From the sequence record NZ_CP072388.1: a stretch of 64,000 nucleotides of DNA. One strand, written 5' to 3'. Shown piece by piece: positions 807 to 19,959 of the stretch; the first letter of the stretch is position 1; each line of letters begins with the position of its first letter. The translations under genes and the position numbers were made by a program. The notes below the pieces were generated by a model. It saw only the letters and a program-made list of their open reading frames with translations. It did no database searches and was not told the DNA's origin. Origin of the DNA: a plasmid.

Positions 807-960
807 GATGAGGGCCGAGGCCCCAGCGATCTTCATTCATGAACACAGACATGAACCACGTCATGAACCGTGTTCGCCAGTCATGACTTCATGCATTCAT
901 GCAAACATGCACAACCAGGCGTCCGCCGGACACCCTGGACGACTTGAGAGAGGTACGCGA
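806..960. repeat. Upstream array of CATGAA/TTCATG hexamers (iteron or centromere-like) between the rep-like ORF and parA
   Basis: At least 6 copies of (T)CATGAA/TTCATG in about 100 bp (ttcattcatgaacacagacatgaaccacgtcatgaacc...tcatgacttcatgcattcatgcaaacatgcac). The array is AT-rich relative to the flanking DNA. Confidence 0.6.
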
Positions 961-1736
961 TGACGACGACGACCGCGCTCGGAAACCAGAAGGGCGGTGT
1001 CGGGAAGACCACGGTGTCGCTGTGTCTGCTGAGCGAGCTCGCTCGTCTCGGCAGGTCATGTCTGCTGATCGACCTCGATCAGCAGATGTCTGCGTCCTCG
1101 ACCGTGGGCGCGGAGGGCGACATCACGATCGAGGACGTCCTGCGCGCGAAGGCTCCCGCGCACCTGTCCGATGCGATCGAGAAGTCGCAGTGGGAGGGGA
1201 TCGACGTCGTTCCGGGCTCCGACACCATCCAGACCCTTGAACGTGACCCCGACGTCATGGCCGCCTTCCGTCTCCAGAAGGTCCTTCGAGACAACGCCGA
1301 CCTGCTCTCCAAGTACGACGACATCATCATCGACCTGCCACCGGATCTGGGGACCTGTACGGTCTCCGGCCTCCTCGCGGCCGACCAGGTCGTCGCCGTG
1401 ACGATCCCGGAGCCGTGGAGTTCCGAAGGCCTCGACCGATTCCTCACTACGCTCGAGGGGATCCGCCAGGGGCCTCACCCCTCGTTGACCCTGTTCGGCG
1501 TCATCGTGAACATGGTCCGCCGCACCAACGAGCACCGGTACCGCATCGCCGAGTTGAACGACTCCGTGGGCGGGCTCGTCATGAACCCGGTGATCCCGCA
1601 GCGCGTCGCCGCGGCGGAGGTCGCAAGCGAGCAGCTGCCGCTGCACGAGCTGAAGAACGAGGGCGCAAAGGTCCTATCAGACCTGTTCGCTGAGCACGCC
1701 AGGGCGCTGGCCGAGGGCCGGAAGGGGAAGAACTGA
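960..1736 (+). CDS. parA: ParA-family partition ATPase (small type Ib, 258 aa)
   Basis: Deviant Walker A motif GNQKGGVGKTTVS near the N-terminus. The size and D-rich motifs are typical of small ParA/ParF proteins. It overlaps the downstream RHH gene by ATGA. Confidence 0.9.
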   Translation: MTTTTALGNQKGGVGKTTVSLCLLSELARLGRSCLLIDLDQQMSASSTVGAEGDITIEDVLRAKAPAHLSDAIEKSQWEGIDVVPGSDTIQTLERDPDVMAAFRLQKVLRDNADLLSKYDDIIIDLPPDLGTCTVSGLLAADQVVAVTIPEPWSSEGLDRFLTTLEGIRQGPHPSLTLFGVIVNMVRRTNEHRYRIAELNDSVGGLVMNPVIPQRVAAAEVASEQLPLHELKNEGAKVLSDLFAEHARALAEGRKGKN

Positions 1737-2399: not shown

Positions 2400-2830
2400 C
2401 TTTGCGCAGGCGTGTGTGAAGTCATGAATGCATGAAGTCATGAGTACCGCGGTCCCAGCCGCGCCCAGCACCGTTCATGAAAGCATGCATGAATGCATAA
2501 ACTCGCGAGCCCATCGTTGGGCCGGCGTACATCCACCACCCGGACAGTTCATGCATGCCTTCATGAAAGCAGGAACGAATGAATGCATGATCCCGTGACC
2601 ACTTTGCGTGCGTCGGTGAAAGTATGAAGTAGTTCACGCATTCATGTACCACTTCATGCATGACTGCATGTGTTGATGAAGCAAGTCATGAAGCCATTCA
2701 TGTTTACATGCATTCATGCATGACGTCATGAACGCATGAATGCATGAACGGTTCTCCTGCGAGCTGTTGGTTCGGGCGACCATGCATGAATGCATGAATG
2801 CATGCATGCGTTCATGCAGTTCACACTGCC
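2400..2830. repeat. Large AT-rich array of CATGAA/TTCATG/ATGCATGA motifs downstream of the par operon (second centromere or iteron/oriV candidate)
   Basis: More than 25 hexamer copies in both orientations, including tandem tgcatgaatgcatgaatgcatgcatg. No coding capacity. The motif is the same as in the 806-960 array. Confidence 0.65.
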
Positions 2831-3540: not shown

Positions 3541-4680
3541 GTGCGAACGGTGGCGCGTAACCCGTTCAAGCCCACAGCGGGCGCCACACCGCCCCTGCTC
3601 GTCGGGCGTGATGACGACCTCGAGGAGTTCGCTGAATCCCTGGACGACGGACCAGGCGCGCCCGGACGACTGACGATCTTCACCGGCGCCCGCGGCGTCG
3701 GCAAGACCGTGATGCTCACCGAGGTCGCCGACACCGCGCTCCAGCGAGCCTGGGTGACGATCGCCGAGACCGCCACGCCCGGCCTCATCGACCGCCTCTC
3801 GGCAGCCACCTCGATGCTCTCGCGCGAGCACGATCCGACCAGCCACCGCGGCCGCAGCATCACCGGTGTCACCCTGCCGGTCGTAGGTGGAGGCCTCACC
3901 TTCAGCCAGGCACCTGCCGTCGTCACGGCGTGGCGCGACGAGCTCGGGGGAGTGCTCGACGCACTCGAGAACCACGGCACCGGACTGCTCGTCACGATCG
4001 ACGAGGTCCACCACGTCGCACGCGAAGACCTTCGCGCACTCGCCGCAACGTTCCAGCACCTGGTACGCGAAGACCGCAACGTCGCCCTCGCCTTCGCCGG
4101 TCTCCCGTCGTCGGTCTCCGACCTGCTCAACGACGACGTCCTGACCTTCCTGCGCCGCGCCACACCCGTCCACCTGGAAGACGTCGCCCTCGACGACGTC
4201 AAGACCGCCCTGCGCACCACCATCACCGACAGCGGACGCACCATCACCGACACCGCCCTCGACGCCGCCGCACAAGCCACCGGCGGCTACCCCTTCATGA
4301 TCCAGCTCGTCGGCTACCACGTATGGCGCAAAGCCAGCAGCGACACCATCGACGAAGCCGCCGTCGCACTCGGCATCCCAGCCGCCCGCAAGCGACTCGG
4401 CTCCACCGTCCACGCCACGGCCCTCGCCGACCTGTCCGACGTCGACCGCACCTATCTGCTCGCCATGGCACAAGACGACGGCCCCTCCCGCACCGGAGTC
4501 ATCGCGAAGCGACTACGCGTCAGCGACTCCTACGCCCAGGTCTACCGCGGCAGACTCCTCGACGCCGGCATGATCGAGACAACCAGACGCGGCTACGTCG
4601 ACTTCGCCATCCCCTACCTGCGCGAATACCTCCGCGAGCACGCCGCCCAGTACGAGATGGCAAACCGCCCCGAGAACTGA
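3541..4680 (+). CDS. AAA-family ATP-binding protein with C-terminal HTH-like region
   Basis: Walker A motif GARGVGKT, Walker B-like LLVTIDEVHH, and a C-terminal helix-rich region. An alternative GTG start at 3550 has an AAAGGAG RBS. Confidence 0.65.
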   Translation: MRTVARNPFKPTAGATPPLLVGRDDDLEEFAESLDDGPGAPGRLTIFTGARGVGKTVMLTEVADTALQRAWVTIAETATPGLIDRLSAATSMLSREHDPTSHRGRSITGVTLPVVGGGLTFSQAPAVVTAWRDELGGVLDALENHGTGLLVTIDEVHHVAREDLRALAATFQHLVREDRNVALAFAGLPSSVSDLLNDDVLTFLRRATPVHLEDVALDDVKTALRTTITDSGRTITDTALDAAAQATGGYPFMIQLVGYHVWRKASSDTIDEAAVALGIPAARKRLGSTVHATALADLSDVDRTYLLAMAQDDGPSRTGVIAKRLRVSDSYAQVYRGRLLDAGMIETTRRGYVDFAIPYLREYLREHAAQYEMANRPEN

Positions 4681-4748: not shown

Positions 4749-4910
4749 ATGACCCTCGACGTCAACTACCCGCCTACTCACCACCCAGCCGTAGCCGTCC
4801 CTGAGCGCCAAGACGTCGAGCAGTCCCTGCTCGCCCACCTCCCTCAGCCCACAACGCCAGCCATCGGAGACCTGACCTGGCCAGGCCTCGAGGCACCCGA
4901 GAGCCTCTAG
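4749..4910 (+). CDS. Small hypothetical protein (53 aa)
   Basis: A strong RBS (AAGGAG) lies 5 nt before the ATG. There is no similarity-based call. Confidence 0.35.
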   Translation: MTLDVNYPPTHHPAVAVPERQDVEQSLLAHLPQPTTPAIGDLTWPGLEAPESL

Positions 4911-5079
4911 CCGAACGACTGATCGACGCCCTCGCGCTCACCCGAGCACGAGGGCATCGTCGTTCCCGGACGCGGCCGATGGCCGAATGGGGGAGCGCTG
5001 AGGTGAGGTAGTGCCCGTCTTCGACCTCGGCTGGGCGCACGGAGATCGAAAGCGTCCTAGCTCGCAAGGAAGCGCACGG

Positions 5080-5322
5080 TTACCCGCGGTGCTTCTCAAC
5101 GTTGCGATACAGGTCGAGCAGTTCCTGCACGTCGCGTTCCTCCGCGCGCCGACGAACGTCCGGACCAGACACCCGGAACGCACACCAAGCGATCACGGCG
5201 ACGTAGACGAACAAGCCCGCCACGAGCACGAGCCACTCACCGCTGTCACCGACGACCTCGTCCATGCGCTCGACCGTACCGCCCCCCTCACCCAGCTCAC
5301 CGACGACCCAGGGAAGAGACAA
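5080..5322 (-). CDS. Small membrane protein (80 aa, one TM helix)
   Basis: Hydrophobic stretch LVLVAGLFVYVAVIAWCAF. Low complexity otherwise. Confidence 0.3.
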   Translation of the reverse strand: MSLPWVVGELGEGGGTVERMDEVVGDSGEWLVLVAGLFVYVAVIAWCAFRVSGPDVRRRAEERDVQELLDLYRNVEKHRG

Positions 5323-5341
5323 GTCGGCGGCCGAGACTCGT

Positions 5342-5692
5342 GGTGGAGCTCGGCAGGGTGCGTGGTGCGCCGGCCGGTGGCCGGCCCGATCTGTGGCCGC
5401 TGCGCGGCCCGGTGCTTTCCCGCGCTGCGCGCGGGGAAGTCGTCCCCTCCTGGCTCTCCATCATCGCCCGCGCGACCCTGCGCGCAACCCGCTCGACTAC
5501 GTCGCCGGCCCGTCGCCGAAACTCGTCGCCCGGCGCTCCTTCGTCGCTTCATCCGGGCGACGAGCCCCGTCGTCGGACCGTACCGCGGGTTGCACTCCGG
5601 GCCGCTTATGCGGGCGTTGATTACGGAGCCAGGAGGGGGCGAAAAACGGTCGGGACCACCCGCCACCCGCCACCTGGCAGGAAGGAGCCCCC
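5342..5692 (+). promoter_or_regulatory. Copy A of a roughly 330-bp palindromic leader element upstream of the DUF4192 gene
   Basis: Shares long blocks with 6957-7308, 11040-11351 and (diverged) 16940-17267: tggccgctgcgcggcc, cccgcgctgcgcgcgggg, gtcgtcccctcctggctctccatcatcg, gcgcgaccctgcgcgcaacc, tgattacggagccaggagggggcgaaaaacggtcgggaccacc. It ends with ggaagg followed by the start codon. Confidence 0.7.
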
Positions 5693-6727
5693 GTGGCTCA
5701 CCAGCCCGCACTCCGCGCCCGCACCGTCGCCGACGTGCTCGCCTACATCCCCGCGTGCATCGGGTACACCCCGACCGAGAGCATGGTCGTCGTCGCCCGC
5801 CGGTCGAGCACCGGCACCGTCGGCCTGGTCGCTCGCGCGGACCTGTCCGACGTCACGCCCGAGACGGCCGACATGCTCGCCGTGCACGTCGCCAACGACC
5901 GCGCCGCGTCCGCGATCATCGCCCTGTACACCGAGGACCGCGAGCAGGCCGACCGCACCCTCGCGGGCATGACCGAGGCCCTGCACGGCCAGGCCGTCGA
6001 CGTGTACGACGCCGTGCAGGTCAGCGCCGACGGGTACGTCGACCTCCACGCGCCGCACCCGGTCGTGCGCCCGCTGTCGGACGTGACCTCGAGCGTGCTC
6101 GCCGCCGAACTGGTCGCCTCCGGCGTCGCCCCGGCGCGTGACCGCGCCGGGCTGCTGCCCGGCGCGGCCGACGAGGCCGCCCAGGACCTCGCCCGCAGTG
6201 CGGCCGCCAAGCACGCCGCCAAGACGCGCGACGAGCAGACCACCCACGCGCTCGCCACGTGGCGACTCGCGCTCAGCGGCCTGGTCGACGGCCCCGCGAT
6301 CTACGGCGAACTCGCGCAGATGCTCACGCACATCAAGGTCCGTGACGCCGCCCTGCTGACCGCCGTCCCCGACGTCGACCCGGACACCGTGACCCAGGTT
6401 GTCACCGGGCAGAACCCGGACGACGACGCCGTGGGCCGCGCGATCGCCGCGATGGTGGACCCGAAGGTCGGCGTCCAGCCCGGTGAGGCCGCCGACGCCG
6501 CGCGCGATCTGCTCGCGCAGATCATCGCGCACGTGCCCACCAGCGCCGCCGCGTGGACGCTGTGGGGCTTCCTCACGTGGTGGACCGGGCAGAACGGCAT
6601 CGCGGGCGACGCCATCGACCGCGCGCTCAGCGTCGACGACGGCTATCGCCTGGCCCTGATGCTGCGGGCCGTGCTTCGGGCGGGCCTGCCGCCCGCATGG
6701 GTCGTGCGCGAGCGCGACGCGCAGTGA
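5693..6727 (+). CDS. DUF4192-family protein
   Basis: The N-terminus (LRARTVADVLAYIPACIGYTPTESMVVVA) matches the DUF4192 signature common on actinobacterial plasmids and conjugative elements. GTG start with a GGAAGGAG RBS. Confidence 0.7.
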   Translation: MAHQPALRARTVADVLAYIPACIGYTPTESMVVVARRSSTGTVGLVARADLSDVTPETADMLAVHVANDRAASAIIALYTEDREQADRTLAGMTEALHGQAVDVYDAVQVSADGYVDLHAPHPVVRPLSDVTSSVLAAELVASGVAPARDRAGLLPGAADEAAQDLARSAAAKHAAKTRDEQTTHALATWRLALSGLVDGPAIYGELAQMLTHIKVRDAALLTAVPDVDPDTVTQVVTGQNPDDDAVGRAIAAMVDPKVGVQPGEAADAARDLLAQIIAHVPTSAAAWTLWGFLTWWTGQNGIAGDAIDRALSVDDGYRLALMLRAVLRAGLPPAWVVRERDAQ

Positions 6728-6860
6728 CACCCGGCGCGCGGCCCGTGGGACAGCCCCGCGGGCCGCGCGCCCTCCGCGCGGGGTGCTGCCCGTACCGGCC
6801 CATCGAGGGCCGGCACGAGCACCGGGGAGCTGCCGCCCCCCGGACCCCCGCCTCATCCCG
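6728..6860 (+). terminator. Conserved roughly 110-bp 3' element with GC hairpins (copy 1)
   Basis: The hairpins ggcccgtgggacagccccgcgggcc and ccggcccatcgagggccgg are near-identical to 8715-8835. Confidence 0.5.
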
Positions 6861-6956
6861 ACGCGCGTCCCAGCAGACCGCACCGAACCAGCCACCAGCG
6901 CCAGGCCGGGGAGCGGCCCGTGGCCGATGGGGGAGTGCCGGTAGCGGGTGCGCCTG

Positions 6957-7307
6957 GTGGAGCTCGGCCAGGTGCGTGGTGCGCCGGCCGGTGGCCGCCC
7001 CGATTCGGTGGCCGCTGCGCGGCCTGGTGTTCTCCCGCGCTGCGCGCGGGGGAGTCGTCCCCTCCTGGCTCTCCATCATCGACCGCGCGACCCTGCGCGC
7101 AACCGACCTCGCTGCGCGTCCCGGCCCGGCGAAACTCGGCGGCCTGCGGTCGCTGCGCTCCCTGAGCTCGGCCGGCGAGCCCCGCCGTTCCGGGACCGGT
7201 CGGTTGCGCTCTGGGCCGCTTGTGCGGTCGGTGATTACGGAGCCAGGAGGGGGCGAAAAAACGGTCGGGACCACCGGCCACCCACCTGCTGGCGGGAAGG
7301 GGCACCC
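6957..7307 (+). promoter_or_regulatory. Copy B of the roughly 330-bp palindromic leader element upstream of the parB-like gene
   Basis: Near-identical to copy C and about 85% identical to copy A. Ends ...accaccggccacccacctgctggcgggaaggggcaccc followed by ATG. Confidence 0.7.
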
Positions 7308-8714
7308 ATGACCACCGACACCACGGCCACTCAGGCCGAGACGACCACCACCGCCGACGGCGCGGAGTTCGCCCACGTCGACCCGCGCACCCTGGTTGTC
7401 GGCGTGAACGTGCGCGCCGACGCCGACCTCACGCCCGCGTTCGTCGGCTCGATCAAGCAGCACGGAGTCCTGCAGCCCGTGCGCGTGCGCCGCGACGACG
7501 ACGGCACGCTCGTCGTCCTGCACGGCCAGCGCCGCACCCTGGGCGCGATCGAGGCGGGCCAGGCGACGATCCCCGCGTACATCGTGACCAGCAGCGGCGA
7601 GGGCGCGCAGCGCATCGTGGAGCAGTTGGCCGAGAACGACCATCGCGAGGACATGCGCGACAGCCACCGCACCGCCGCCTACCGTCAGCTCTCGCTCGAG
7701 TTTGGGCTGAGCGCGGCGCAGATCGCCAAGCGCACCGGCACGAAGAAGGCCGTCGTCCAGGCCACGCTCACCGTGGCCGAGTCCCAGGTCGCCGCCGCCG
7801 TGCAGGCCAAGTACGACCTGCCGCTGGATGTGGCCGCCGCCCTGGCGGAGTTCGACGACGACACTGAGACCGTCAAGAACCTGACCGCCGTCGCGGTCAA
7901 GGAGCCTGGCCGCTTCGCCCACGAGGCTCAGCGCGCGCGTGACGAGCGCCAGCGCGCCGCCGAGGTCGCCGCCGCCCGCGAGACCCTGACCGCACAGAAC
8001 GTGACCGAGGTCGAGCGCCCCGACTACAACGACGCCAAGGTCCAGCACCTGGCTCGACTCAAGCCCACCAACGACGACCCGAACGGCACCGACCTGACCC
8101 CCGAGGCGCACGCCGAGTGCCCCGGTCACGCGGCGTACATCGCCGCGCAGTGGAACCGCGTCGAGATCGTCTACGTCTGCACGAACTGGCGCACCCACGG
8201 CCACGCCGACCGCTACGGCACCACCAGCACCCAGCGCACCGGACCGATGAGCGAGGCCGAGAAGGCCGAGCGCAAGCAGGTCATCGAGAACAACAAGGCG
8301 TGGAAGTCCGCCGAGACCGTGCGCCGGACCTGGCTCGCGGAGTTCGCCCAGCGCAAGACCGCCCCCAAGGGCGCCGCCGAGTACATCGCCCACGCGATCG
8401 CCACCGAAACCCACACCCTGCGACGCGCAGGAGAGCGCGGACACACACTGGCCAGCGAATGGCTCGGCATCAAGACCGAGACCAGCCCGTACCCGACCGG
8501 ACGCGGCCTGGCCGACCTCATCGCCAAGGCCACCCCCAGCCGCGCCCAGCACATCGCGCTCGTCCTCGCCCTCGCCGCACGCGAGGCCGAGACCGGCGTG
8601 CAGACCTGGCGCCGCGAAGGCGCCGAACAGACCTACCTCAGCGCACTCGAAACCTGGGGCTACACCCTCAGCGACGTCGAGCAGATCGCCCGAGGCCAGG
8701 CGCCCACCGAGTAG
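7308..8714 (+). CDS. ParB/Sulfiredoxin-like nuclease-domain protein (469 aa)
   Basis: The N-terminal block (GVLQPVRVRRDDDGTLVVLHGQRRTLGAIEAG) resembles the ParB N-terminal domain with its GxRR motif. The long C-terminal region is unique. Confidence 0.75.
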   Translation: MTTDTTATQAETTTTADGAEFAHVDPRTLVVGVNVRADADLTPAFVGSIKQHGVLQPVRVRRDDDGTLVVLHGQRRTLGAIEAGQATIPAYIVTSSGEGAQRIVEQLAENDHREDMRDSHRTAAYRQLSLEFGLSAAQIAKRTGTKKAVVQATLTVAESQVAAAVQAKYDLPLDVAAALAEFDDDTETVKNLTAVAVKEPGRFAHEAQRARDERQRAAEVAAARETLTAQNVTEVERPDYNDAKVQHLARLKPTNDDPNGTDLTPEAHAECPGHAAYIAAQWNRVEIVYVCTNWRTHGHADRYGTTSTQRTGPMSEAEKAERKQVIENNKAWKSAETVRRTWLAEFAQRKTAPKGAAEYIAHAIATETHTLRRAGERGHTLASEWLGIKTETSPYPTGRGLADLIAKATPSRAQHIALVLALAAREAETGVQTWRREGAEQTYLSALETWGYTLSDVEQIARGQAPTE

Positions 8715-8835
8715 CACCCAGCGCGGTCCGTGGGACAGACCCGCGGGCCGCGCACCCGGGTGCGCGCGCTGCCTGCGCCGGCCCATCGAGGGCCGGCGCA
8801 GACACCGGGGAGCTGCCGCCCCCCGAACCCCCGCC
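8715..8835 (+). terminator. Conserved roughly 110-bp 3' element with GC hairpins (copy 2)
   Basis: ggtccgtgggacagacccgcgggccgcgc...ccggcccatcgagggccggcgcagacaccggggagctgccgccccccgaacccccgcctc matches 6728-6860. Confidence 0.5.
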
Positions 8836-9004
8836 TCGGCATGAGTACCGGATCAGAAGAACGCCACCGTGGCCGACGGTCGAGATTTCAACGAGGAACT
8901 TCCGAGCCTACGTGCGGCTGCCGTGATGACCAGGTGCGATTGGCCTCGAGGTGGCCGGATTCCGCGCTTTCATCGTCTGGGTCGGTTGCATAGAACCCGA
9001 ACGC

Positions 9005-10354
9005 TCATGGCGACGAGAGGGTCGCGACTCGCCAGTTGAGGCTATTTGCGACTTCGTAGACGGAGGCTGCGAATCCGTACGGGCTGCATCCGCGGCCGTT
9101 CGGCTGCGCAGCAGGGACCCCGTTGCAGTTGTCCAGGACCCACTCCTCGTCTTCGAACCAGTAGATCCCCGAGATGACGCCCAGAGCGCGTGGTCGGAAG
9201 CCCGCGTCGACGGAAACCAAGTCGAACACGGGGCCACCGCTGTCTCCGCTGCCCCACAGCGGTTCGCCGAGTTGGTTGACGATACGAGCGACCTTTGCGC
9301 TGGTGATGTCGGTGTCCTCATACTCGACGAAATAGTCGGTTTCGACGACCTGCCCACCGCAGGTCATGCCGGAGTACGATCCCGAGCTGCAGACCTCTTG
9401 TCCGAGAAGATAGCCAGTGGAGACTGCCTCCACGCCGACGTACTGGGTGCTCGTGTACTCGCCGATGTACATGTAGGGGTTCGACCAGTCCTGCGTCAGG
9501 ACGGCGCCGTCGAGGCTTGTGAGCCGGTGCGTCATGTTGCCGTAGTGGTAGGCCATGAGGCCGCCTTCAGACATGGCGGTACGGACCCATTGGGAGTTGA
9601 TCGGACCGCAGTGGGCGGCGGTGACCATCCCGTAGTCGCCGGTGACCTTGTGTCGGGTGGCGAAAGCGGTGCTGCAGTTGCCACGGAGGTAGCCGTCCTG
9701 GAACCGGCTTATCCGGGCGCCGCCCAAGTGCAGGTTGTCGGACAGTCGGGCGGGGTTGTTCTGGACGTTCTCGTTGACGCGCACCGGCACGCCGGCGATC
9801 TCGCTCAGCTCGTTGGCTACTTCGTCGCGATCGGGGCTCGCGCTGCGGCGTGCACCGGTTGACGTGCTCTGGTCAAGGTCCACATAGACGCCAGAGGCGT
9901 CGGCGTTGACGCCCGCGCCGGCGACCTTTGCACCGCCCACCTCGGTGCCGGGAAGACTTGCCGCGGCCCGGCGGAGGTCTCCAGGGAGGTACGGGGCGGC
10001 AGTAACCGCCAAGTTCTCCGACGGCGTCAGGTCAGCTGGGACGTCCCCGTACCACGCGACAGACAGGTGGGACCGGTCGTCCGAGATGGCGAGCGTGCCG
10101 AGGCGGTCGTCGGAGCCGTAGCGCTTCCTGATCTCGTCGGCCTTGGCGGCCACAACCTCGGGAATGGCGGGCGTGTGAAGGTGCTGCGCCAGGTCAGACG
10201 GGTCGAGGACTGACCGTTGATCGACGGGGCCCTGTACATCGGGCTCAGGCGGCGGGACGGGCGAGTTCGTCGCGTGTGCAGCGATCCCCCCGCACAGAGA
10301 GAGCGAGACGGCGGCGACGAGCGCATAGCTGCCGCGTTGCAGCCTGGACTTCAT
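9005..10354 (-). CDS. Secreted trypsin/alpha-lytic-protease-like S1 serine protease with pro-region
   Basis: N-terminal signal peptide. Catalytic motifs TAAHCG and GDSGGP with disulfide Cys pairs. The C-terminal domain is typical of streptogrisin-like proteases. Confidence 0.85.
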   Translation of the reverse strand: MKSRLQRGSYALVAAVSLSLCGGIAAHATNSPVPPPEPDVQGPVDQRSVLDPSDLAQHLHTPAIPEVVAAKADEIRKRYGSDDRLGTLAISDDRSHLSVAWYGDVPADLTPSENLAVTAAPYLPGDLRRAAASLPGTEVGGAKVAGAGVNADASGVYVDLDQSTSTGARRSASPDRDEVANELSEIAGVPVRVNENVQNNPARLSDNLHLGGARISRFQDGYLRGNCSTAFATRHKVTGDYGMVTAAHCGPINSQWVRTAMSEGGLMAYHYGNMTHRLTSLDGAVLTQDWSNPYMYIGEYTSTQYVGVEAVSTGYLLGQEVCSSGSYSGMTCGGQVVETDYFVEYEDTDITSAKVARIVNQLGEPLWGSGDSGGPVFDLVSVDAGFRPRALGVISGIYWFEDEEWVLDNCNGVPAAQPNGRGCSPYGFAASVYEVANSLNWRVATLSSP

Positions 10355-10362
10355 GTTTCCCC

Positions 10363-10815
10363 CTACGTTGTCGTATGCGGTACCGCTTTGCCATTAACGA
10401 GAACCTCGACAGCGTCGTCGACGGAATTCTCGACCGGGATCTCCACAACGTGACTAAAAGGAACGCTATCCGCGGTGCAGCTCATGTTGTTGCTGCGCGC
10501 CATCTCGAGAGCGAGAGTTGTCGATCCTTGCCAAGCGATCCCCACCGGGATCGCTGGGCAGCTGGAACTACCCCAGGACGTGACCGTGAGCGTCGGCGGC
10601 TCGGCGGTCGGGTCGATGACTACATTCGACTGCCCCTCCGGCGGTGGCCTGAGCGTCGAGTCCTCGGTGGGAAACGAGTCGACAGCGATCGAGACAGCGG
10701 GCACGCCAGTCCTGGATGCGGGAGGCGGGTCACTAGAGGGCGCCGCACAGCCGGTGATGACGCCAACGACGAGCAACCCAGTGAAAAGCACCGGCACGTA
10801 GGCGGCTCGCCTCAT
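10363..10815 (-). CDS. Lipoprotein (150 aa) encoded just upstream of the protease on the same strand
   Basis: Signal peptide with lipobox LVVGVITGC. Four Cys residues. Separated from the protease gene by only 8 bp. Confidence 0.55.
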   Translation of the reverse strand: MRRAAYVPVLFTGLLVVGVITGCAAPSSDPPPASRTGVPAVSIAVDSFPTEDSTLRPPPEGQSNVVIDPTAEPPTLTVTSWGSSSCPAIPVGIAWQGSTTLALEMARSNNMSCTADSVPFSHVVEIPVENSVDDAVEVLVNGKAVPHTTT

Positions 10816-11039
10816 TGACTATCCCCCAAAGTCAAGGTGGTGGAAGGAGAGTGCCATAAGTTCGGATGGTCGACAAGGGTCGGGCGCGCGGTCCGTGCTC
10901 GGCCGCGAACGAGTAAGGGGCACGTTGAGCGTCTGAGCGTGGCGAGACTCAGCCGCGTCGCTCGCCGAAGATCAGGGTGCTCGAGGGCGCGTTCTTGCGC
11001 GGTGCAGGGGCACGGCAGATCCCTGCGCCTTGAGGCCCG

Positions 11040-11351
11040 CTGCGCGGGCTGTTCGTGCCGCTGCGCGGCCCGGTGTTGTCCCGCGCTGCGCGCGGGGGAG
11101 TCGTCCCCTCCTGGCTCTCCATCATCGACCGCGCGACCCTGCGCGCAACCGACCTCGCTGCGCGTCCCGGCCCGGCGAAACTCGGCGGCCTGCGGTCGCT
11201 GCGCTCCCTGAGCTCGGCCGGCGAGCCCCGCCGTTCCGGGACCGGTCGGTTGCGCTCTGGGCCGCTTGTGCGGTCGGTGATTACGGAGCCAGGAGGGGGC
11301 GAAAAACGGTCGGGACCACCGGCCACCCACCTGCTGGCGGGAAGGGTCACC
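11040..11351 (+). promoter_or_regulatory. Copy C of the roughly 330-bp palindromic leader element
   Basis: Near-identical to copy B. Internal long-range complementarity (cccctcctggctc pairs with gagccaggagggg; gcgcaaccgacc pairs with ggtcggttgcgc) predicts a long imperfect hairpin. Confidence 0.7.
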
Positions 11352-11741
11352 ATGACCACCAACTCCGCGCACGTCTTCGGTGAGCCGATCCACGTCTACA
11401 CCCGCGCCCGGGCCCTGGCCGACGGCGTCCTGGTCGACGCCGGGCCGCTGGCCGGTGAGGCAGGGTTCCGCTGGCCCGTCGCGCTCACCCAGGCGGCTCA
11501 CGCCGAGGCTGTCACCTGGAACCCCGAGCACGGCCCCGGGCAGGACGAGACCGGCCGACTGTGGGACGTGCTCTGGCTCGCCACCATCGCGGCCCGCGCG
11601 GGCCGCTCCCGGTTTACCGTGGCCCGCGTCCCCAATCTCCCGGGCCAGGACGAGGCCCAGGGCCTCGACCTCGTGCTCCACGTCGGCCCCGGCGACACGG
11701 GCGAACCGGTCGTGACGATCAGCCTCCCCGGCGAGGACTGA
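11352..11741 (+). CDS. Hypothetical small acidic protein (129 aa)
   Basis: First ORF after leader copy C. GGAAGG RBS. No recognised domain. Confidence 0.5.
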   Translation: MTTNSAHVFGEPIHVYTRARALADGVLVDAGPLAGEAGFRWPVALTQAAHAEAVTWNPEHGPGQDETGRLWDVLWLATIAARAGRSRFTVARVPNLPGQDEAQGLDLVLHVGPGDTGEPVVTISLPGED

Positions 11742-11816
11742 CCGCCACCGCGGCGGGCCAGCAGCGGCCCGCCGCGGCCCCACGCCCGACCGGCCCCGGC
11801 CCACGAAGGGACCACC

Positions 11817-12149
11817 ATGACCACCGAGCACCAGACCATGCGCCAGCGCGTGGCCGCCATCAACTCCCACCCCGCCGAGCTCGAGCCCGAGCAGCGCGCC
11901 GCGCTCGAGGAGCGCGTCCGTCGCCGCCTGCCCGGCTACCCCGACCAGTACGTCATCCAGTACGCGAACGGCGATGCCGATTTCGCGCTCTGGCTCGCCC
12001 TGGTCGACGTCCGGCTCATGCGCCGAATCTGGCTCACCCACCGCGCTATCGCGGACCGCCCCTGGCGCGAGGACTACGACGCGGGCCGCGACCCCATCGA
12101 CGCCGCCGACGAGGCGGCCGAGGAGGAAGCCGGCCACCACTTCGACTGA
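11817..12149 (+). CDS. Hypothetical protein with acidic C-terminus (110 aa)
   Basis: ATG follows a GAAGGGACCACC RBS region. Followed by a GC hairpin (gcgggccgggcgcaagaacgcccggcccgc). Confidence 0.5.
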   Translation: MTTEHQTMRQRVAAINSHPAELEPEQRAALEERVRRRLPGYPDQYVIQYANGDADFALWLALVDVRLMRRIWLTHRAIADRPWREDYDAGRDPIDAADEAAEEEAGHHFD

Positions 12150-12190
12150 ACCACCAGCGGGCCGGGCGCAAGAACGCCCGGCCCGCCCCT

Positions 12191-12235
12191 CACCTGAGGT
12201 ATACATACAGATGCGCTAGATGTATACTTGAGGTG
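12191..12235. promoter_or_regulatory. AT-rich imperfect palindrome (cacctgaggtatacat...atgtatacttgaggtg)
   Basis: 16-bp arms with 2 mismatches around a 13-bp spacer. An AT-rich island in GC-rich DNA just upstream of the 12300 ORF. Confidence 0.5.
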
Positions 12236-12299
12236 TTGGAAGGGCACGCAACGGCCGGAGACCACCGGCCACCCGGCACCAACGCAAAGGAGGGCCCTC

Positions 12300-12581
12300 G
12301 TGGCTCAGCACACCATCGCCGCCCAGGACGCGAGCCGCGCGTCGTTCGAGGCCAGCATCGAGGCCGCCAAGCGCCACGCGCGGGAGACCGGCGAGGACCT
12401 GTACGACGTGCTGGATCGGATGGACCGCAACGACGCGAGCGTCGTCCCGGCGATCCACCCCCTGATCAGCGCCGACAAGGCCCACCTGGCCCAGCGCATG
12501 CGCGGCGCCCTGTGGATCGATCCGACCGGACGCCGCACCTACACCCCGCCCGCGCGCACCCTGGGCGAGCTGCTCGCCTGA
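12300..12581 (+). CDS. Hypothetical protein (93 aa)
   Basis: GTG start preceded by AAAGGAGGG. The accaccggccaccc box lies upstream. Confidence 0.4.
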   Translation: MAQHTIAAQDASRASFEASIEAAKRHARETGEDLYDVLDRMDRNDASVVPAIHPLISADKAHLAQRMRGALWIDPTGRRTYTPPARTLGELLA

Positions 12582-12661
12582 CGTGCCCGGTGGGTCGGGA
12601 AGGAGACTTCCCGGCCCACCGGCTGGCCCACCCAGAACCGCACGCGAGCAGGAGAGCGCCC

Positions 12662-13603
12662 ATGCTGACCATCACCCACACCCGCGAGGCTGGAACCCTT
12701 ATCGACGGGACCGAGCGCGGCGACGGAACGAACGTCATCCTCAAGGCCAACGGCTGGCGGTTCAGCCGCAGCCTGGCCGGTTGGTTCATCCCGCAGTCGC
12801 GGGACCGCGCCGTCAAGGCGTGGAAGATCAACGCGACCGCGGCCGCGCTGCGCGAGGCCGGCCACACGGTCGAGGTCCACGTCGACGACACCGCCCGCCC
12901 GGCCGCCGTCGTCGAGGCCGACAAGATCGCCCGACAGGCCGACCGCACCGCGGCCCTGGCCGCCAAGGCTGACCGCAAGACCGCCGCCGCCGATGCCGCC
13001 TACGCCCGGCACGAGGCCGCCGTCGAGCGGCTGCCCGAGGGAGGGGAGCCGATCAAGATCGGCCACCACTCCGAGAAGCGCCACCGCCGCGACACCGAGC
13101 GCGCATGGTCCACGCTCGGCACCGCCGTCCACGCCCAGCGCGACGCCGAGGACGCCCAGGAGGCAGCGGCGACCGCCGCCGCGACGACCGGCGCCCGGTA
13201 CAACCCCGTCACCGTCGGGAACAGGATCGACCGGCTGGCCGCACAGATCCGCAAGTACGAGCGCGAGCTGGTCGCGCCGGTCTACGACCTCGACACCGGA
13301 TACCGGCCCGCGACCGAGCACGAGCAGGCCCGGCGCCGTCGACGCCTCGAGCCGGCCATCGCCGAGACCCGCGACAACCTCGCGCACTGGCAGGACGTGC
13401 GCGCCCAGCAGATCGCCGACGGCACCGTCACCGCATACGGGCCGCACAACGTCGCCAAGGGCGACGAGGTCAAGATCGGCCACTGGTGGCGACGCGTCGC
13501 CCGCGTCAACGCCAAGTCCGTGAGCGTCGAGACCGACTACTCCTGGACCGACCGCGCCCCGTGGCACGAGGTCACCGACCACCGCCCGGCCCAGGCCACG
13601 TGA
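12662..13603 (+). CDS. DUF3560-family protein
   Basis: The N-terminus MLTITHTREAGTLIDGTERGDGTNVILK matches the DUF3560 signature seen on actinobacterial plasmids. Followed by a hairpin (gggcgggccgcacccggcccgccc). Confidence 0.7.
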   Translation: MLTITHTREAGTLIDGTERGDGTNVILKANGWRFSRSLAGWFIPQSRDRAVKAWKINATAAALREAGHTVEVHVDDTARPAAVVEADKIARQADRTAALAAKADRKTAAADAAYARHEAAVERLPEGGEPIKIGHHSEKRHRRDTERAWSTLGTAVHAQRDAEDAQEAAATAAATTGARYNPVTVGNRIDRLAAQIRKYERELVAPVYDLDTGYRPATEHEQARRRRRLEPAIAETRDNLAHWQDVRAQQIADGTVTAYGPHNVAKGDEVKIGHWWRRVARVNAKSVSVETDYSWTDRAPWHEVTDHRPAQAT

Positions 13604-13671: not shown

Positions 13672-14535
13672 ATGACCACCGCCACCGCACCCCGAACCCG
13701 TAGGCTCACCCGTGCACGCCGCGCCGCCGTGGGGGACTTGCCGCCCCCCACACCCCCCGCCTCCGGCGCGGCTCACCACCGCCTGCAACCCCGAGGTGCC
13801 CTTCCCATGACCACCCGCCGCGTCGACGCGCTGCCCGACGAGCACGCCGGCCCGATCCTCGAGCTGCTCGAGCGCGTGCGCGCAGCCGCGACCGCGCCTG
13901 ACGGCGATGGGGGAGCGTGGGCCGCGGCCGAAGCGGGGCAAGCCCGGGTCCGCACCGGGTACAAGGCCGCCCGCCGCACCCTGTCCGCCGGGCAGTACGC
14001 CGCGCACACCCTGCGCCTGCTCGCCCTGACCCAGCCCGAGGCCGACCGCGAACCGTGGACCAACGCCCTGGCCCACGCCGGCGCACCGATCGGCTCTTGG
14101 GACTGGGACGAGCGCATGCAAGGCGCGCTCGACCTGCGCCGCACCTTCAAGGACCTGCCCGAGCCGCTGCCCGAGACCGTGCGCTCGGTCCGGCTCGTGT
14201 CCGCCTGGCTCACCCACGCCAGCGGCACCGGGCTCGTGCCTGTCACCGCCCGCCTCGCCGCCCACGTCCTCGAGCTCGAGCCCGACGGCGACGTCCTCGC
14301 CGCCGCCTGGTACGCCACCCACGGCACCCGGCTCCTGGCCGAGCTCACTGCCAACGGCACACCCACCAGCGGAGCGCCCGACCTCGACGAAGCCCACCAA
14401 CGCGCACTCCTGCGCACCGCCGTGCGCGGCCTCTATAGCGCGCAGCTGCTCACCAAGGTCGACCTCGCCGCCCGCGCCGGCGTCACACGGCGCACCCTCG
14501 ACGCTTGGACGGCCAGTGCAGAGGCTCAGACGTAG
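13672..14535 (+). CDS. Hypothetical protein with C-terminal HTH-like segment
   Basis: AGGAGAA RBS before the ATG. The C-terminus (LTKVDLAARAGVTRRTLDAWTA) is HTH-like. An alternative start lies at 13807. Confidence 0.45.
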   Translation: MTTATAPRTRRLTRARRAAVGDLPPPTPPASGAAHHRLQPRGALPMTTRRVDALPDEHAGPILELLERVRAAATAPDGDGGAWAAAEAGQARVRTGYKAARRTLSAGQYAAHTLRLLALTQPEADREPWTNALAHAGAPIGSWDWDERMQGALDLRRTFKDLPEPLPETVRSVRLVSAWLTHASGTGLVPVTARLAAHVLELEPDGDVLAAAWYATHGTRLLAELTANGTPTSGAPDLDEAHQRALLRTAVRGLYSAQLLTKVDLAARAGVTRRTLDAWTASAEAQT

Positions 14536-15584
14536 ATCGCGAGGGGAACCACGCGGAACGACTCGCCGCTGACCCGAGAACTGAACGTCAGGTCGACTTG
14601 GCTCGCGTCGAAAGATCCCTCGTTCGGTTCAAGGTTGTCGGCGGCGGTCGCGATGAACTTGGCCAACGCATCGACGCCGTCGGCCCCGATGCGGGACAGG
14701 AGCTTGTTGCGCCGAAGGATGGGCGCGTCGGCCTCCAGGCTGGACGTAACCTTGCCTAAGACGGTGAACTCGCCATCCAGGATGCGATCCTCATCATCGA
14801 CCGTGAAATGTCCGGTGTCACAGATGGTGACCGCAGTGACCGTCGCGTCGCCAGAGGCGATCGCGCCGTAGTACTCCCGTGTCGTCGTGCTGCGGAAGTC
14901 GGTCTTGACGGCCCGTGTGATCGCCCCGGCCAGTTCTCCTCGCGCCCCGGCCTCAAGGTCGATTCTGAGGGCCGCCTTCTGTACGTCCTCGTGGGTCCCG
15001 TAACCCTCGAACAGCTTCGCCTCGGACAGCTTGTGCTGGGTTCGTGTGATCGTCTCCACGAGCTCGGGCGTTACAACGTCCATGAGCGTCGTCACCTCGC
15101 TGGGGCGGAACCACGCTCGGTACTCAACGAAATCGCCCGCCTTGAGGTGTCGTGCATCGTCAAGGTTGGCGACCGTCCGCAGCACCTCAGCGTCGCGCAG
15201 TGCCTTGCGCACGAGGTTGAGGTAGTACGCCTGCGAGTAGACGAAGTTCTGCACCGCACGCGTACTCGTCGCACTTGCTCCCTCGTGGCCTCGCAGGTAG
15301 CTGTAGTCCGCTTGTGCCTTCACCTTGGCGATCAAGGGCGTATTGGCCTCACCGGCAACCTGAACCCCGGCATTGTGCTCGCTCTTCTGCCCTGTCGATG
15401 ACGTACCTTCGTTCTCGAACGTCTCGTCGACCACCAAGGGACGCTCGAAGAACTGCTGGACCACGCCGGCTACGTGCTCACCGTGCTGATAGATCGTCAC
15501 GGTAGGCGCAAGTACTTGGTCCTTGACCTGCTCTTCTGGGGACAGCGGCTCCGTCGTCATGAAGCATGACGATTCCATAAGCAC
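14526..15584 (-). CDS. Orphan protein of unknown function (352 aa) in a lower-GC patch
   Basis: Clean ORF in a roughly 60% GC segment versus about 70% in the flanks. No recognisable motifs. Opposite strand to its neighbours. Confidence 0.55.
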   Translation of the reverse strand: MLMESSCFMTTEPLSPEEQVKDQVLAPTVTIYQHGEHVAGVVQQFFERPLVVDETFENEGTSSTGQKSEHNAGVQVAGEANTPLIAKVKAQADYSYLRGHEGASATSTRAVQNFVYSQAYYLNLVRKALRDAEVLRTVANLDDARHLKAGDFVEYRAWFRPSEVTTLMDVVTPELVETITRTQHKLSEAKLFEGYGTHEDVQKAALRIDLEAGARGELAGAITRAVKTDFRSTTTREYYGAIASGDATVTAVTICDTGHFTVDDEDRILDGEFTVLGKVTSSLEADAPILRRNKLLSRIGADGVDALAKFIATAADNLEPNEGSFDASQVDLTFSSRVSGESFRVVPLAIYV

Positions 15585-17267: not shown

Positions 17268-17519
17268 ATGACCAGCCAGGGGATCGAGGTCACCGTGTAC
17301 AGCAAGCCGGCGTGCGTGCAGTGCGACGCGACGTACCGCGCTCTGGACAAGAAGGGGATCGCGTACACCGTGGTGGACATCAGCGCCGACGCCCTCGCGC
17401 TCGAGCGGGTGCGTGCCCTGGGGCACCTCCAGGCCCCGGTCGTCGTCGCCGGTGACGTGTCGTGGTCCGGGTTTCGGCCCGACCAGGTCAATGCCCTCGC
17501 GGCCCGTCAGGAGGTCTGA
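17268..17519 (+). CDS. nrdH: NrdH-like glutaredoxin-fold redoxin
   Basis: 84 aa with a CVQC redox motif near the N-terminus (VTVYSKPACVQCDATY), the typical NrdH/glutaredoxin pattern. Confidence 0.7.
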   Translation: MTSQGIEVTVYSKPACVQCDATYRALDKKGIAYTVVDISADALALERVRALGHLQAPVVVAGDVSWSGFRPDQVNALAARQEV

Positions 17520-17520
17520 C

Positions 17521-18546
17521 ATGAGCGACGAGTTGACCCGTGAGCGCACGGTGCAGATCAACGCCGCGGCGTGGGAGTTCTGGCGCTTCCATGCGAACAG
17601 TGCTGACGACTGGACCCGGGCCTACCTCGCCGCACGCGGGCTGCGCGGCCTGCAGGCCGGGTACGCGCCCGAGGGGTGGGCTCGGCTGGTGGGCCGCATG
17701 CGCGGCCGCGGGTTCAGCGCGGACGAGATCGTGGCCGCCGGCCTCGCGTTCCGCACCGAATCCGGCTCGGTAGGGGACGTCTTCCGCGACCGCCTGGTGC
17801 TGGCGTACCGCGACGAGCACGGCGACATCGTCGGGTTCACCGCGCGTCGCAACCCCGCGCTCGACGACGACGGCGATGCGCCGGCGAAGTACCTCAACAC
17901 GACCGCCACGCCCGCGTTCGACAAGAGCCGGGACCTGTACGGCCTCGACCCCGCGGCCGCGCGGAACATCCGTGCCGGCGCGCGCGTCGCGGTCGTCGAG
18001 GGCGCCCTGGACGCCGAGGCCATCCGCCGCACCGGGACCGCCGTGGTCGCCGTGTCCGGGTGCGGCACCGCGGTCACCGCGACGCACCTCGAGCGGCTGC
18101 GCGCGATCCACCCGGACGCCGTCGCGCTGGCCGTGTTCGCGTTCGACGCCGACGCCGCTGGCCGCGGTGCCGCGTCGCGCGTGTGGGACCTGCTCAACGA
18201 CGTCGAGGCCGGCACCGCCGGCGCCCTGGTGCTGCCCGAAGGGACCGACCCCGCGCAACTCGTCCAGGACGGCCACGGGCACGCCCTCGCCGAGCGGCTC
18301 GCGCAGCCGACCAGCCTCGCGAGCGTCGTCGTCGACGCCGAGCTCGCACGCCACGACCTGACGATCCCCGAGGGTCGCGTCGCCGGACTGCGCGCCGCGG
18401 CCGCACGCGTCGCACGCATCCCACAGGCGCCCCTGGCACGCGTCGGCGCCCACCTGCACGCACGCCTGGCGCCGCACACCGACCTGGGCACGATCGCCGG
18501 CGAGCTCGCCGTCGCGCATGCAGGCGCGGCGCGCGGGGGCGCGTGA
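17521..18546 (+). CDS. Toprim-domain protein (DnaG-primase-like C-terminal fold)
   Basis: VVEGALDAEA and AFDADAAG acidic motifs characteristic of Toprim. Sits 2 bp after nrdH. Confidence 0.65.
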   Translation: MSDELTRERTVQINAAAWEFWRFHANSADDWTRAYLAARGLRGLQAGYAPEGWARLVGRMRGRGFSADEIVAAGLAFRTESGSVGDVFRDRLVLAYRDEHGDIVGFTARRNPALDDDGDAPAKYLNTTATPAFDKSRDLYGLDPAAARNIRAGARVAVVEGALDAEAIRRTGTAVVAVSGCGTAVTATHLERLRAIHPDAVALAVFAFDADAAGRGAASRVWDLLNDVEAGTAGALVLPEGTDPAQLVQDGHGHALAERLAQPTSLASVVVDAELARHDLTIPEGRVAGLRAAAARVARIPQAPLARVGAHLHARLAPHTDLGTIAGELAVAHAGAARGGA

Positions 18547-18792: not shown

Positions 18793-19575
18793 GTGGCGCA
18801 ACCGTGGGAGACGGGTGACGAGATCTCCCGCTGGCATGGGTACCTGCTCGACGACGGCAAGACGCTACGCAACCGCGTCGGCGCCACGACGCCGGACGAC
18901 CTACGCCGCGCAGAGGACCACCTCGTGGAGACCCGGGCGCTGTCGCTGCGCGAGCACGACCTGCCCGGCACCTACGACCTCGCCGGCCTGCAGGCCGTCC
19001 ACCGGCACATGTTCCAGGACGTCTATGACTGGGCGGGCGAGCTGCGGACGGTGTCGATCCGCAAGAGCGCGGACACGTGGTTCACGCCTGTGCCCGACAT
19101 CGAACCGTCCATGGAAGTGCTCGCTGGCCACCTGCGCGCGTCCGACAACCTGCGCGCGATCGATGCCCAGCACGTGCCGGGTGCGCTCGCCACCGTCTAC
19201 GACATCGTTAACCAGGCACACCCGTTCCGGGAGGGCAACGGCCGCGTCCAGCGCGAGTTCCTGAGCGCCCTTGCGAGCGAGAGCGGGCACCACATCGACT
19301 GGACGAAGGTGACGCTGTCCGTCGGCGATCGCGAGAACGAAAACGACCGCGTCAGCCGCCTCGCCCTCGCCGGTGACAACGGCCCGATGCGCGACATGTT
19401 CGCGCGCATCGTGACCCGCGCAGACCGCGACAGCTTCGACGTCGCCGCCTTCGAGGCGGTGCGCATCGCGCAGGCCGGTCGGGTGACCCGTCCGCGCTCA
19501 TCCGAGCACGGACCGAGGCCTGCCGCGCCACGTATCCCTGGCGCCTCGCAAGGACAAGAGATCGATCGGACGTAG
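18793..19575 (+). CDS. Fic/Doc-family protein (VbhT-like toxin)
   Basis: Canonical Fic motif HPFREGNGRVQR. Confidence 0.85.
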   Translation: MAQPWETGDEISRWHGYLLDDGKTLRNRVGATTPDDLRRAEDHLVETRALSLREHDLPGTYDLAGLQAVHRHMFQDVYDWAGELRTVSIRKSADTWFTPVPDIEPSMEVLAGHLRASDNLRAIDAQHVPGALATVYDIVNQAHPFREGNGRVQREFLSALASESGHHIDWTKVTLSVGDRENENDRVSRLALAGDNGPMRDMFARIVTRADRDSFDVAAFEAVRIAQAGRVTRPRSSEHGPRPAAPRIPGASQGQEIDRT

Positions 19576-19958: not shown

Positions 19959-19959
19959 G

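Follow-up and report, generated by a model that had tools for sequence, protein, structure and literature searches.

A stretch of 64,000 nucleotides (nt) of the plasmid record NZ_CP072388.1, referred to here as the window, carries three copies of a repeated sequence of ~350 nt, the 5′ module, each of which ends at the start codon of a different gene, and two copies of a second repeated sequence of ~125 nt, the 3′ module, which follow two of these genes. Judged from sequence, structure and gene context, these modules probably represent an actinobacterial family of single-stranded DNA (ssDNA) promoters comparable to the Frpo promoters of plasmid F, with an associated RNA terminator module. The genes of the three cassettes encode a DUF4192 protein, a ParB-like protein and a DUF6573 protein, and all positions are collected in Table 1.

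The 5′ module has a characteristic layout, in which 2-3 small GC hairpins are followed by a hairpin core of ~200 nt. An A-run and another small hairpin come next, and a ribosome-binding site, GGAAGG, then leads to the start codon. An initial annotation of this DNA had described two cassettes, and the two 5′ and two 3′ modules it reported are present where it had placed them; both kinds of module are non-coding, with boundaries that coincide with the ends of the coding sequences. Copies 1 and 2 of the 5′ module share 86.7% identity, against 63-67% for unrelated GC-rich sequence aligned in the same way, and the E-values of the 5′ modules in nhmmer range from 1e-76 to 1e-98. The third copy, which had been missed, is 98% identical to copy 2 and is truncated at its 5′ end, where approximately the first 48 model positions are gone. 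The same layout, at ~80% identity, is found in the Cellulosimicrobium plasmid pTL2A.

The core of the 5′ module is an imperfect hairpin with fold z-scores of -5 to -7.6. The minus-strand DNA of copy 1 folds at -83.1 kcal/mol (z = -6.6) and that of copy 2 at -81 kcal/mol (z = -5.4), with a z-score of -7.6 for the RNA fold of copy 2. Covariation was assessed in 35 aligned copies of the 5′ module, with shuffles and slid partners as controls. Standard pairs are present in 97.4% of the cells, compared with 84.1 ± 0.6% after shuffling, and only 39-50% of the cells are paired when the partners are slid. Compensatory changes occur in 19 of the 34 pairs and in 126 cells, where 33.8 were expected, although the copies are phylogenetically related, so that these counts overstate the number of independent events. 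The long imperfect hairpin is real and is kept by selection. Rfam searches returned no relevant family, neither for the whole window at the gathering threshold nor for positions 5000-11500 under permissive settings.

Watson-Crick covariation is uninformative on which of the two strands folds. In a strand-neutral count, wobble-type mismatches were scored arm against arm in each copy. With this count, 262 mismatches fit a fold of the minus strand and 97 a fold of the plus strand, with the minus strand ahead in 39 copies and behind in 6. Neighboring hairpins have the opposite sign, as hairpin 1 of the 3′ module favors the plus strand by 19:3 and the small hairpins of the 5′ module favor it by 39:7; a uniform compositional bias is therefore not the explanation for the minus-strand excess. 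Frpo1 and Frpo2 of plasmid F, which are validated ssDNA promoters, served as a positive control. Their counts, 10-12 against 3-4 in favor of the transferred strand, agree in sign and ratio with those of the module, and their transferred strand folds 7-10 kcal/mol better. A plain comparison of minimum free energies also favors the minus strand, in 29 of the 30 copies, but is confounded, since the minus strand is also the better folder in windows from coding regions, with a margin of 5.6 ± 5.1 kcal/mol, and a background minus bias of 2-5 kcal/mol is seen in dinucleotide shuffles. Because of this background, the plain energy comparison was down-weighted and replaced by the arm-against-arm count. 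Another count, made on the consensus pairs of RNAalifold (47 G-T against 7 A-C on the plus strand), was rejected as biased, as the structure had been predicted on the plus strand and two columns dominate the result.

Read on the minus strand, the gene-distal arm of the hairpin contains a promoter-like motif, consisting of TTGnnn, a spacer of 15-16 nt, GAnnAT and then GG, in all 45 of the 45 correctly extracted unique hairpins. The window contains exactly three matches to this motif, each inside a 5′ module. It is the sole conserved TTG...nAnnnT arrangement on either strand of the module (34 of 35 copies), and TAnnnT occurs on the plus strand of none of the copies. The TTG is kept in 44 of 45 hairpins and is thus nearly invariant, positions -12, -11 and -7 are invariant, position -8 is nearly so, and positions -10 and -9 covary with their pairing partners, a pattern of conservation like that of a promoter. 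When the minus strand is folded, the -35 element is fully paired, the A at -11 is always mismatched and faces a C or an A (C in copy 2), and an internal loop holds positions -6 to -4. Across from it, the template arm has a 4-nt loop, and a stem of 13 base pairs (bp) follows. The arm with the motif is the non-template strand only in the minus-strand hairpin. The gene-proximal arm is contiguous with the template strand of the gene, so that transcription by an RNA polymerase acting on the hairpin would proceed into the gene. When the DNA is double-stranded, the motif is directed away from the gene.

The position of the cassettes on the plasmid is consistent with such a function. The mapped genes from DUF4192 to the relaxase gene are all located on the plus strand, with minus-strand open reading frames (ORFs) interspersed at 9005-10815, 14526-15584 and ~19640-19960. 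The MobC and relaxase genes lie downstream of the cassettes, and all 5′ modules are co-oriented with this operon in three of three elements, namely the window and plasmids of Paraoerskovia and Xylanimonas. In the Xylanimonas plasmid, one 5′ module heads an operon containing ArdC-like and SSB genes. A candidate origin of transfer (oriT) is present between the Fic gene and mobC, and its flank is invariant in the same three elements (Table 1). Since the genes are directed toward this candidate oriT and the MobC-relaxase operon, the cassettes lie probably in the leading region, and relaxase genes are usually found in the lagging region (PMC11541004). Together with the position of the relaxase gene, the location of the flank on the 3′ side of the inverted repeat, as read on the minus strand, suggests that the minus strand is transferred with the cassettes within the leading region, and the wobble asymmetry of the main hairpin agrees as a third indirect line. 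At the candidate oriT itself, the inner bases of the repeat covary and the left flank is invariant over 22 nt. A second conserved block in 20066-20160, GGCACACTGGnCGTGTG...CCCCGC...GCGGGG, is possibly an operator or promoter of mobC. The small minus-strand ORF at ~19640-19960 adjoins the candidate oriT, as it does in relatives.

The 3′ module starts 1-3 nt past the stop codon, and its two copies in the window share 85.7% identity, including the strings gtgggacagNcccgcgggccgcgc and ccggcccatcgagggccgg that had been noted in both. Its three hairpins differ in character. Hairpin 1, directly past the stop codon, is a GC stem of 17 bp that has numerous sense-strand G-U pairs but no U-tract, and is best read from its sequence as a putative terminator or stabilizer of the sense transcript. 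Hairpins 2 and 3 (6784-6853 and 8769-8835) have the loops ATCGA and AGCTGCCG, which are invariant in ten copies, and their wobble pairs favor the minus strand by 13:2, while hairpin 1 alongside them favors the plus strand. On the transferred strand, these two hairpins may serve for priming or as a roadblock, and the 3′ module seems to combine a signal at the level of RNA with one at the level of ssDNA. The impression of a fixed expression frame given in the initial annotation is borne out, with a promoter-like hairpin and a 5′ untranslated region (UTR) ahead of the gene and a terminator-like RNA hairpin behind it.

The distribution of the 5′ module was determined with a pattern scan followed by nhmmer. 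It was found in plasmids or contigs of Cellulosimicrobium, Isoptericola, Paraoerskovia, Xylanimonas, Oerskovia, Actinotalea, Cellulomonas, Puerhibacterium and Kribbella, and further in one metagenome-assembled genome labeled Mycobacterium and ~30 metagenome contigs. The carriers are thus Micrococcales and a few other actinobacteria, mostly with two or three copies per element, and no viral contig matched the pattern of the 5′ module. The 3′ module has a narrower range, which comprises Cellulosimicrobium-like elements, Oerskovia and, in partial form, Isoptericola. The elements of Paraoerskovia, Xylanimonas, Actinotalea and Kribbella have 5′ modules without any 3′ module. The two modules are separable, as many elements have only the 5′ module and the 3′ module behind the ParB-like gene is not followed by a 5′ module in either the window or pTL2A; they do not form one long repeat. 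Many of the metagenome contigs start or stop inside a 5′ or 3′ module, and at one locus two 3′ modules overlap in inverted orientation, so these repeats evidently break or confuse assemblies.

A census of the first gene downstream of the 5′ module included 62 instances with a called gene. These genes encode DUF4192 (18 of 62), DUF6573 (17 of 62) and ParB-like proteins (16 of 62), followed by a family of 283 amino acids (5 of 62), a family of 84 amino acids (2 of 62) and singletons (4 of 62); a Pfam search with the minor cargo families gave no match. The suggestion that cargo genes are shuffled into a common frame, as in an integron, does not agree with this census, in which the first gene is nearly always one of the same three families, and the alternative suggestion of a recent duplication followed by gene replacement does not fit with gene-module pairings that extend over at least nine genera. 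The order DUF4192, ParB, DUF6573 is shared by the window and pTL2A, and in Paraoerskovia the ParB gene is ahead of DUF4192. The 5′ modules have a mean identity of 83% within one element, with some pairs at 99-100%, and across elements the identity is 67% at orthologous positions and 66% at non-orthologous ones. In addition, the apical variant of the 5′ module before the ParB gene differs between the window and pTL2A. The similarity of the copies within an element and the swap of the apical variant point to concerted evolution, or gene conversion, of a repeated signal instead of an exchange of cassettes, and the sequence comparisons indicate that this process accounts for the high similarity within elements. 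Between the second and third cassettes, the stretch of ~2.2 kb at 8846-11049 contains two minus-strand ORFs without a Pfam match (9005-10354, 449 amino acids, and 10363-10815, 150 amino acids). The corresponding place in pTL2A holds only a 231-bp ORF, and in the window this stretch takes the place of approximately 48 positions at the start of the third 5′ module, so that the array of cassettes seems to have received an insertion here.

The proposed model builds on what is observed, namely repeated modules with a covarying hairpin, a conserved motif placed in a fitting geometry, an asymmetry of wobble pairs, and genes of a particular context and orientation. To these it adds the choice of the transferred strand, recognition by RNA polymerase, a transcription start site and a timing of expression, which we infer. 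The plasmid would be moved by its relaxase, and the cassettes, located in the probable leading region, would reach the recipient first. The nick would lie on the minus strand, 3′ of CGTAAGTG-TATAGCTTG. In the recipient, the ~200-nt inverted repeat of the transferred minus strand, the template of the genes, would fold into the imperfect hairpin, and its gene-distal arm would act as the non-template strand, offering TTGCGC as the -35 element, the 15-16-nt spacer, GAnnAT as the -10 element and then GG. The A at -11 would already be unpaired, and positions -6 to -4 would be placed in an internal loop. Host RNA polymerase with sigma-A would initiate near the base of the hairpin and transcribe along the contiguous template through a 5′ UTR of ~70 nt into DUF4192, the ParB-like gene or DUF6573. 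Synthesis of the complementary strand would abolish the hairpin and leave the motif facing away from the gene, which would confine expression to a brief early period. Each unit is probably insulated, and its transcript terminated or stabilized, by sense-RNA hairpins, namely hairpin 1 of the 3′ module and the small ones at the 5′ edge of the 5′ module.

Several observations weigh against an ssDNA promoter, in addition to the relatedness of the copies and the minus-strand bias of coding regions mentioned above. The motif is weak by the Escherichia coli consensus, with 8 of 12 matches and a G at -12, and a strict sigma-70 scan of 4900-12700 does not report it. With DNA parameters, the plus strand has a slight folding advantage in copies 2 and 3 of the window, and two conserved G-T wobbles occur on the plus strand, at columns 140:299 and 148:291. 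The transferred strand and the nick position are both inferred, and an analogous inference failed for pLS20, where the transferred strand turned out to be the non-template strand (PMC8708921). The cassettes are located 9-15 kb from the candidate oriT, and no type IV secretion genes were detected among the ~40 ORFs of the window that were scanned. Such genes are present in the closest annotated relatives, namely pTL2A, the Paraoerskovia plasmid and the Xylanimonas plasmid (typed MOBP/MPF_T), in the form of SCO6880-family, VirB4-like and coupling-protein genes.

The strict scan of 4900-12700 reports one strong sigma-70-type match, TATACA-17-TATACT at 12200-12228, upstream of the gene that starts at 12300. 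This promoter sits in an AT-rich palindrome, and the 5′ UTR of the gene at 12300 and the tail of the 5′ module have the GACCACCGGCCACCC hairpin motif in common, which indicates that the UTR part of the 5′ module is also used with an ordinary promoter.

The plus-strand RNA can fold into this long hairpin as well (z-scores of -5 to -7.6), and this, together with the strand-blind nature of Watson-Crick covariation, agrees with a structured leader in the sense mRNA, that is, a long 5′ UTR element involved in RNA processing, translational control or processive antitermination, with 3′ modules as terminators that are overridden. Further in its favor are the two conserved G-U pairs of the plus strand and an AGGAGG/CCUCCU pair across the arms, which recalls the sequestration of a ribosome-binding site. 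A parallel exists in EGeRS1 and EGeRS2 of the pLS20-family Bacillus plasmids, which are the nearest Gram-positive analogue: repeated, conserved and strongly structured sequences of at least ~325 nt, with which one conjugative plasmid equips several of its establishment or anti-defence operons, right before their ribosome-binding sites (PMC8708921, PMC6294495). For these Firmicutes sequences, an ssDNA promoter was rejected by the authors, since the transferred strand of pLS20 is the non-template strand and the fold contains no promoter, and no evidence was available on whether EGeRS1 acts through ssDNA or RNA (PMC8708921). In the modules described here, by contrast, the stem has a conserved promoter-like motif, and the template strand is favored by the wobble count. 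A leader in the sense mRNA is nevertheless unlikely, because no conserved plus-strand promoter was found in or ahead of the module, terminator-like sense hairpins are found just upstream, and the wobble count of the main hairpin is on the side of the minus strand while the flanking hairpins are on the side of the plus strand. It would also leave the invariant minus-strand TTG...GAnnAT, with its promoter-like profile and constant spacing, unexplained.

The hairpin might also be a single-strand element of the transferred strand other than a gene promoter, either a priming site for host RNA polymerase or for the DnaG-like primase of the plasmid, or a replication roadblock, with its position before genes being secondary. 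The minus-strand preference, which the main hairpin shares with hairpins 2 and 3 of the 3′ module, would agree with this, and the DnaG-like primase gene is located in the same region. Moreover, priming of DNA synthesis is a further role of Frpo RNA (Masai and Arai 1997, as cited in PMC9849209), and the F promoter ssp2 blocks synthesis of the complementary strand (bioRxiv 10.64898/2026.01.09.698686). This possibility is given a rather low probability, as a conserved UTR and ribosome-binding site stand directly before the start codon in all 62 of the 62 instances with a called gene, and every copy is oriented with the motif firing into the gene. It overlaps with the favored ssDNA promoter instead of excluding it.

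A third explanation takes the motif as an ordinary promoter in double-stranded DNA (dsDNA), from which an antisense or divergent small RNA would be made leftward, with the inverted repeat as an operator or cruciform site. The conserved TTGCGC-16-GATGAT does read leftward on the minus strand in dsDNA, but the motif is weak for duplex use, no terminator or conserved product is found leftward, and neither the covarying stem of ~70 bp, which includes the gene-proximal arm, nor the invariant mismatch opposite -11 would be explained, which makes this quite improbable.

Integron attC sites are imperfect hairpins that fold in ssDNA and flank unrelated genes. Integron-like or otherwise mobile gene cassettes, or a recent duplication with gene replacement, as proposed initially, would account for identical flanking modules around unrelated genes and would share with attC sites the imperfect, ssDNA-folding hairpins beside them, but are very improbable given the same few cargo families over at least nine genera, the cassette order shared with pTL2A, the within-element similarity accounted for by gene conversion, the location of the hairpin 5′ of a gene with its ribosome-binding site, and the lack of IntI, attI or any adjacent integrase (the nearest tyrosine recombinases are at 55-59 kb). 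An integron or an element like a miniature inverted-repeat transposable element was also rejected as a class, since the orientation is fixed, a ribosome-binding site is fused to the module, the cargo is restricted and an integrase is missing.

The ssDNA promoter favored here has counterparts among the Frpo/ssi promoters, which include Frpo1/ssp1a, Frpo2/ssp1b and ssp2 of F and the ssi repeats of ColIb-P9. These are likewise imperfect hairpins of ~330 nt (PMC9849209, PMC11541004, PMC13478746), present as near-identical copies a few kb apart before different leading genes on one strand, which are directed toward oriT and the relaxase or tra genes. In both cases, pairing within the stem restores -35 and -10 elements (promoter-like ones here), the genes' template strand is the better folding one and has a matching wobble asymmetry, and a ParB-family gene is among those controlled, in F under Frpo2 and putatively so here. 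Plasmid F has two Frpo copies, 92% identical and ~5 kb apart, before different leading genes including the ParB-family gene (PMC9849209). The Frpo2 operon contains yfjB, a ParB/RepB/Spo0J-family gene encoding 652 amino acids (7539-9497 of the F stretch examined); the ParB-like protein of the window matches YfjB in only 52 residues of the ParB domain (E = 1e-4). Sequence likeness to Frpo was absent, both in a search of the F leading region with a hidden Markov model of the module (nhmmer, none at E <= 10) and in a blastn search of the window with Frpo1 and Frpo2 (none at E <= 1). Differences are also found in the hosts, which are high-GC Actinomycetota and not Enterobacteria, in the -10 element, which is GAnnAT with G at -12 and a spacer of 15-16 nt, and in the genes, which are DUF4192, DUF6573 and actinobacterial ParB-like genes and not ssb, psiB or ardA, and the function here is a predicted one.

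Promoter-like sequences in ssDNA hairpins are also recognized by RNA polymerase in the ssoA-type single-strand origins of rolling-circle plasmids. Those origins yield a short primer RNA on small rolling-circle plasmids, whereas three copies fused to a UTR and a ribosome-binding site are present here on a plasmid with iterons and ParA. To our knowledge, ssDNA promoters have been shown experimentally only on the enterobacterial plasmids F and ColIb-P9. Large surveys have extended them by similarity to the sequences of these two plasmids, and the searchable literature makes no mention of Frpo-like elements in Actinobacteria.

Table 1. Positions of the modules, motifs, genes and other features in the window
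Feature	Position	Strand	Details
5′ module copy 1	5341-5692	- (putative functional fold)	nhmmer 280 bits; ends at DUF4192 GTG (5693); small sense-strand hairpins ~5366-5440; main hairpin ~5441-5641; tail/5′ UTR with GGAAGG ribosome-binding site to 5692
Motif of copy 1	5458-5487	-	TTGCGC (5487-5482), 16-nt spacer, GATGAT (5465-5460), then GG
DUF4192 gene, cargo of cassette 1	5693-6727	+	344 amino acids; Pfam PF13830, 2e-32
3′ module copy 1	6728-6860	+	hairpin 1 ~6732-6770, hairpin 2 ~6784-6819, hairpin 3 ~6821-6843; conserved tail ACCCCCGCCT
5′ module copy 2	6955-7307	-	ends at ParB-like ATG (7308); main hairpin ~7056-7256
Motif of copy 2	7073-7102	-	TTGCGC (7102-7097), 16-nt spacer, GATGAT (7080-7075), then GG
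ParB-like gene, cargo of cassette 2	7308-8714	+	ParB N-terminal domain/helix-turn-helix (HTH) protein, 468 amino acids; Pfam ParB_N 5e-7; TIGR00180 1.4e-18
3′ module copy 2	8715-8845	+	hairpin 1 ~8721-8754, hairpin 2 ~8773-8801, hairpin 3 ~8805-8825; no 5′ module next
5′ module copy 3	11050-11351	-	before DUF6573 ATG (11352); main hairpin ~11102-11302
Motif of copy 3	11148-11119	-	
DUF6573 gene, cargo of cassette 3	11352-11741	+	129 amino acids; Pfam PF20213, 1.1e-20
Three cassettes together	5341-11741		
Candidate oriT	20066-20110	-	inverted repeat CACTTACG-TGC-CGTAAGTG at 20080-20098, between Fic and mobC
Invariant flank CGGAGCAAGCTATA	20066-20079		3′ of inverted repeat read on minus strand; kept in window, Paraoerskovia and Xylanimonas plasmids
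MobC/NikA-like accessory gene	20197-20595	+	same strand as cassettes, downstream of them
MobA/VirD2-type relaxase gene	20592-22136	+	same strand as cassettes, downstream of them
ParA	960-1736		Pfam/NCBIfam scan
Iteron-like array	2403-2821		between ParA gene and AAA-ATPase gene
AAA ATPase	3541-4680		Pfam/NCBIfam scan
DUF3560	12662-13603	+	Pfam/NCBIfam scan
DnaG-like primase	17413-18546	+	Pfam/NCBIfam scan
Fic	18793-19575	+	Pfam/NCBIfam scan
Metal-resistance and transposon cargo	beyond 22 kb		

The array at 2403-2821 consists of at least 11 short, AT-richer repeats resembling CATGAATGCATGAA, spaced 8 nt apart inside clusters and ~36-74 nt between clusters, and probably represents plasmid iterons, a centromere or a replication origin. 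Cargo unrelated to the cassettes includes two P-type ATPase genes at 34836-42063 with a common 154-nt repeat that is 71% identical (35098-35251 and 40331-40484), a Mu-type transposase at 45812-47215, and two adjoining tyrosine-recombinase genes on the minus strand at 55309-58805. Among the relatives, PLSDB/MOB-suite types pTL2A (NZ_CP101476) and NZ_AP027730 as non-mobilizable. The Paraoerskovia plasmid is nonetheless annotated with MobC, relaxase, coupling-protein and SCO6880-family genes, and the stretch of pTL2A that was examined has an SCO6880-family gene, so this typing looks like a gap in the typing of actinobacterial conjugation systems.

A more far-reaching interpretation, which is possible but doubtful, is that each cassette would be a complete expression unit for the single-stranded state, of a kind not yet described. 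Such a unit would combine a hairpin promoter on the transferred strand, a terminator in the sense RNA (hairpin 1 of the 3′ module) and another element specific to the transferred strand, formed by hairpins 2 and 3, which may be a priming site for the DnaG-like primase or a roadblock to synthesis of the complementary strand, and these parts would jointly set how long each early gene stays single-stranded and expressed. Relaxase-type plasmids of actinobacteria would then have DUF4192, DUF6573 and the ParB-like protein as their core set of early proteins for establishment or anti-defence.

The strand-neutral wobble count, validated on Frpo1 and Frpo2, provides a simple test for the functional strand of a conserved hairpin. 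If the modules are ssDNA promoters, they would form a family in high-GC Actinomycetota that is unrelated in sequence to the known ones and supported by covariation, and they would provide a defined motif and fold with which GC-rich genomes can be searched. Furthermore, three uncharacterized families, DUF4192, DUF6573 and the ParB-like protein, would be nominated as products of the earliest-expressed establishment or anti-defence genes of plasmids that also bear metal-resistance cargo. Gene expression from incoming ssDNA would then either have arisen independently in these bacteria or be far more widespread than homology searches reveal.

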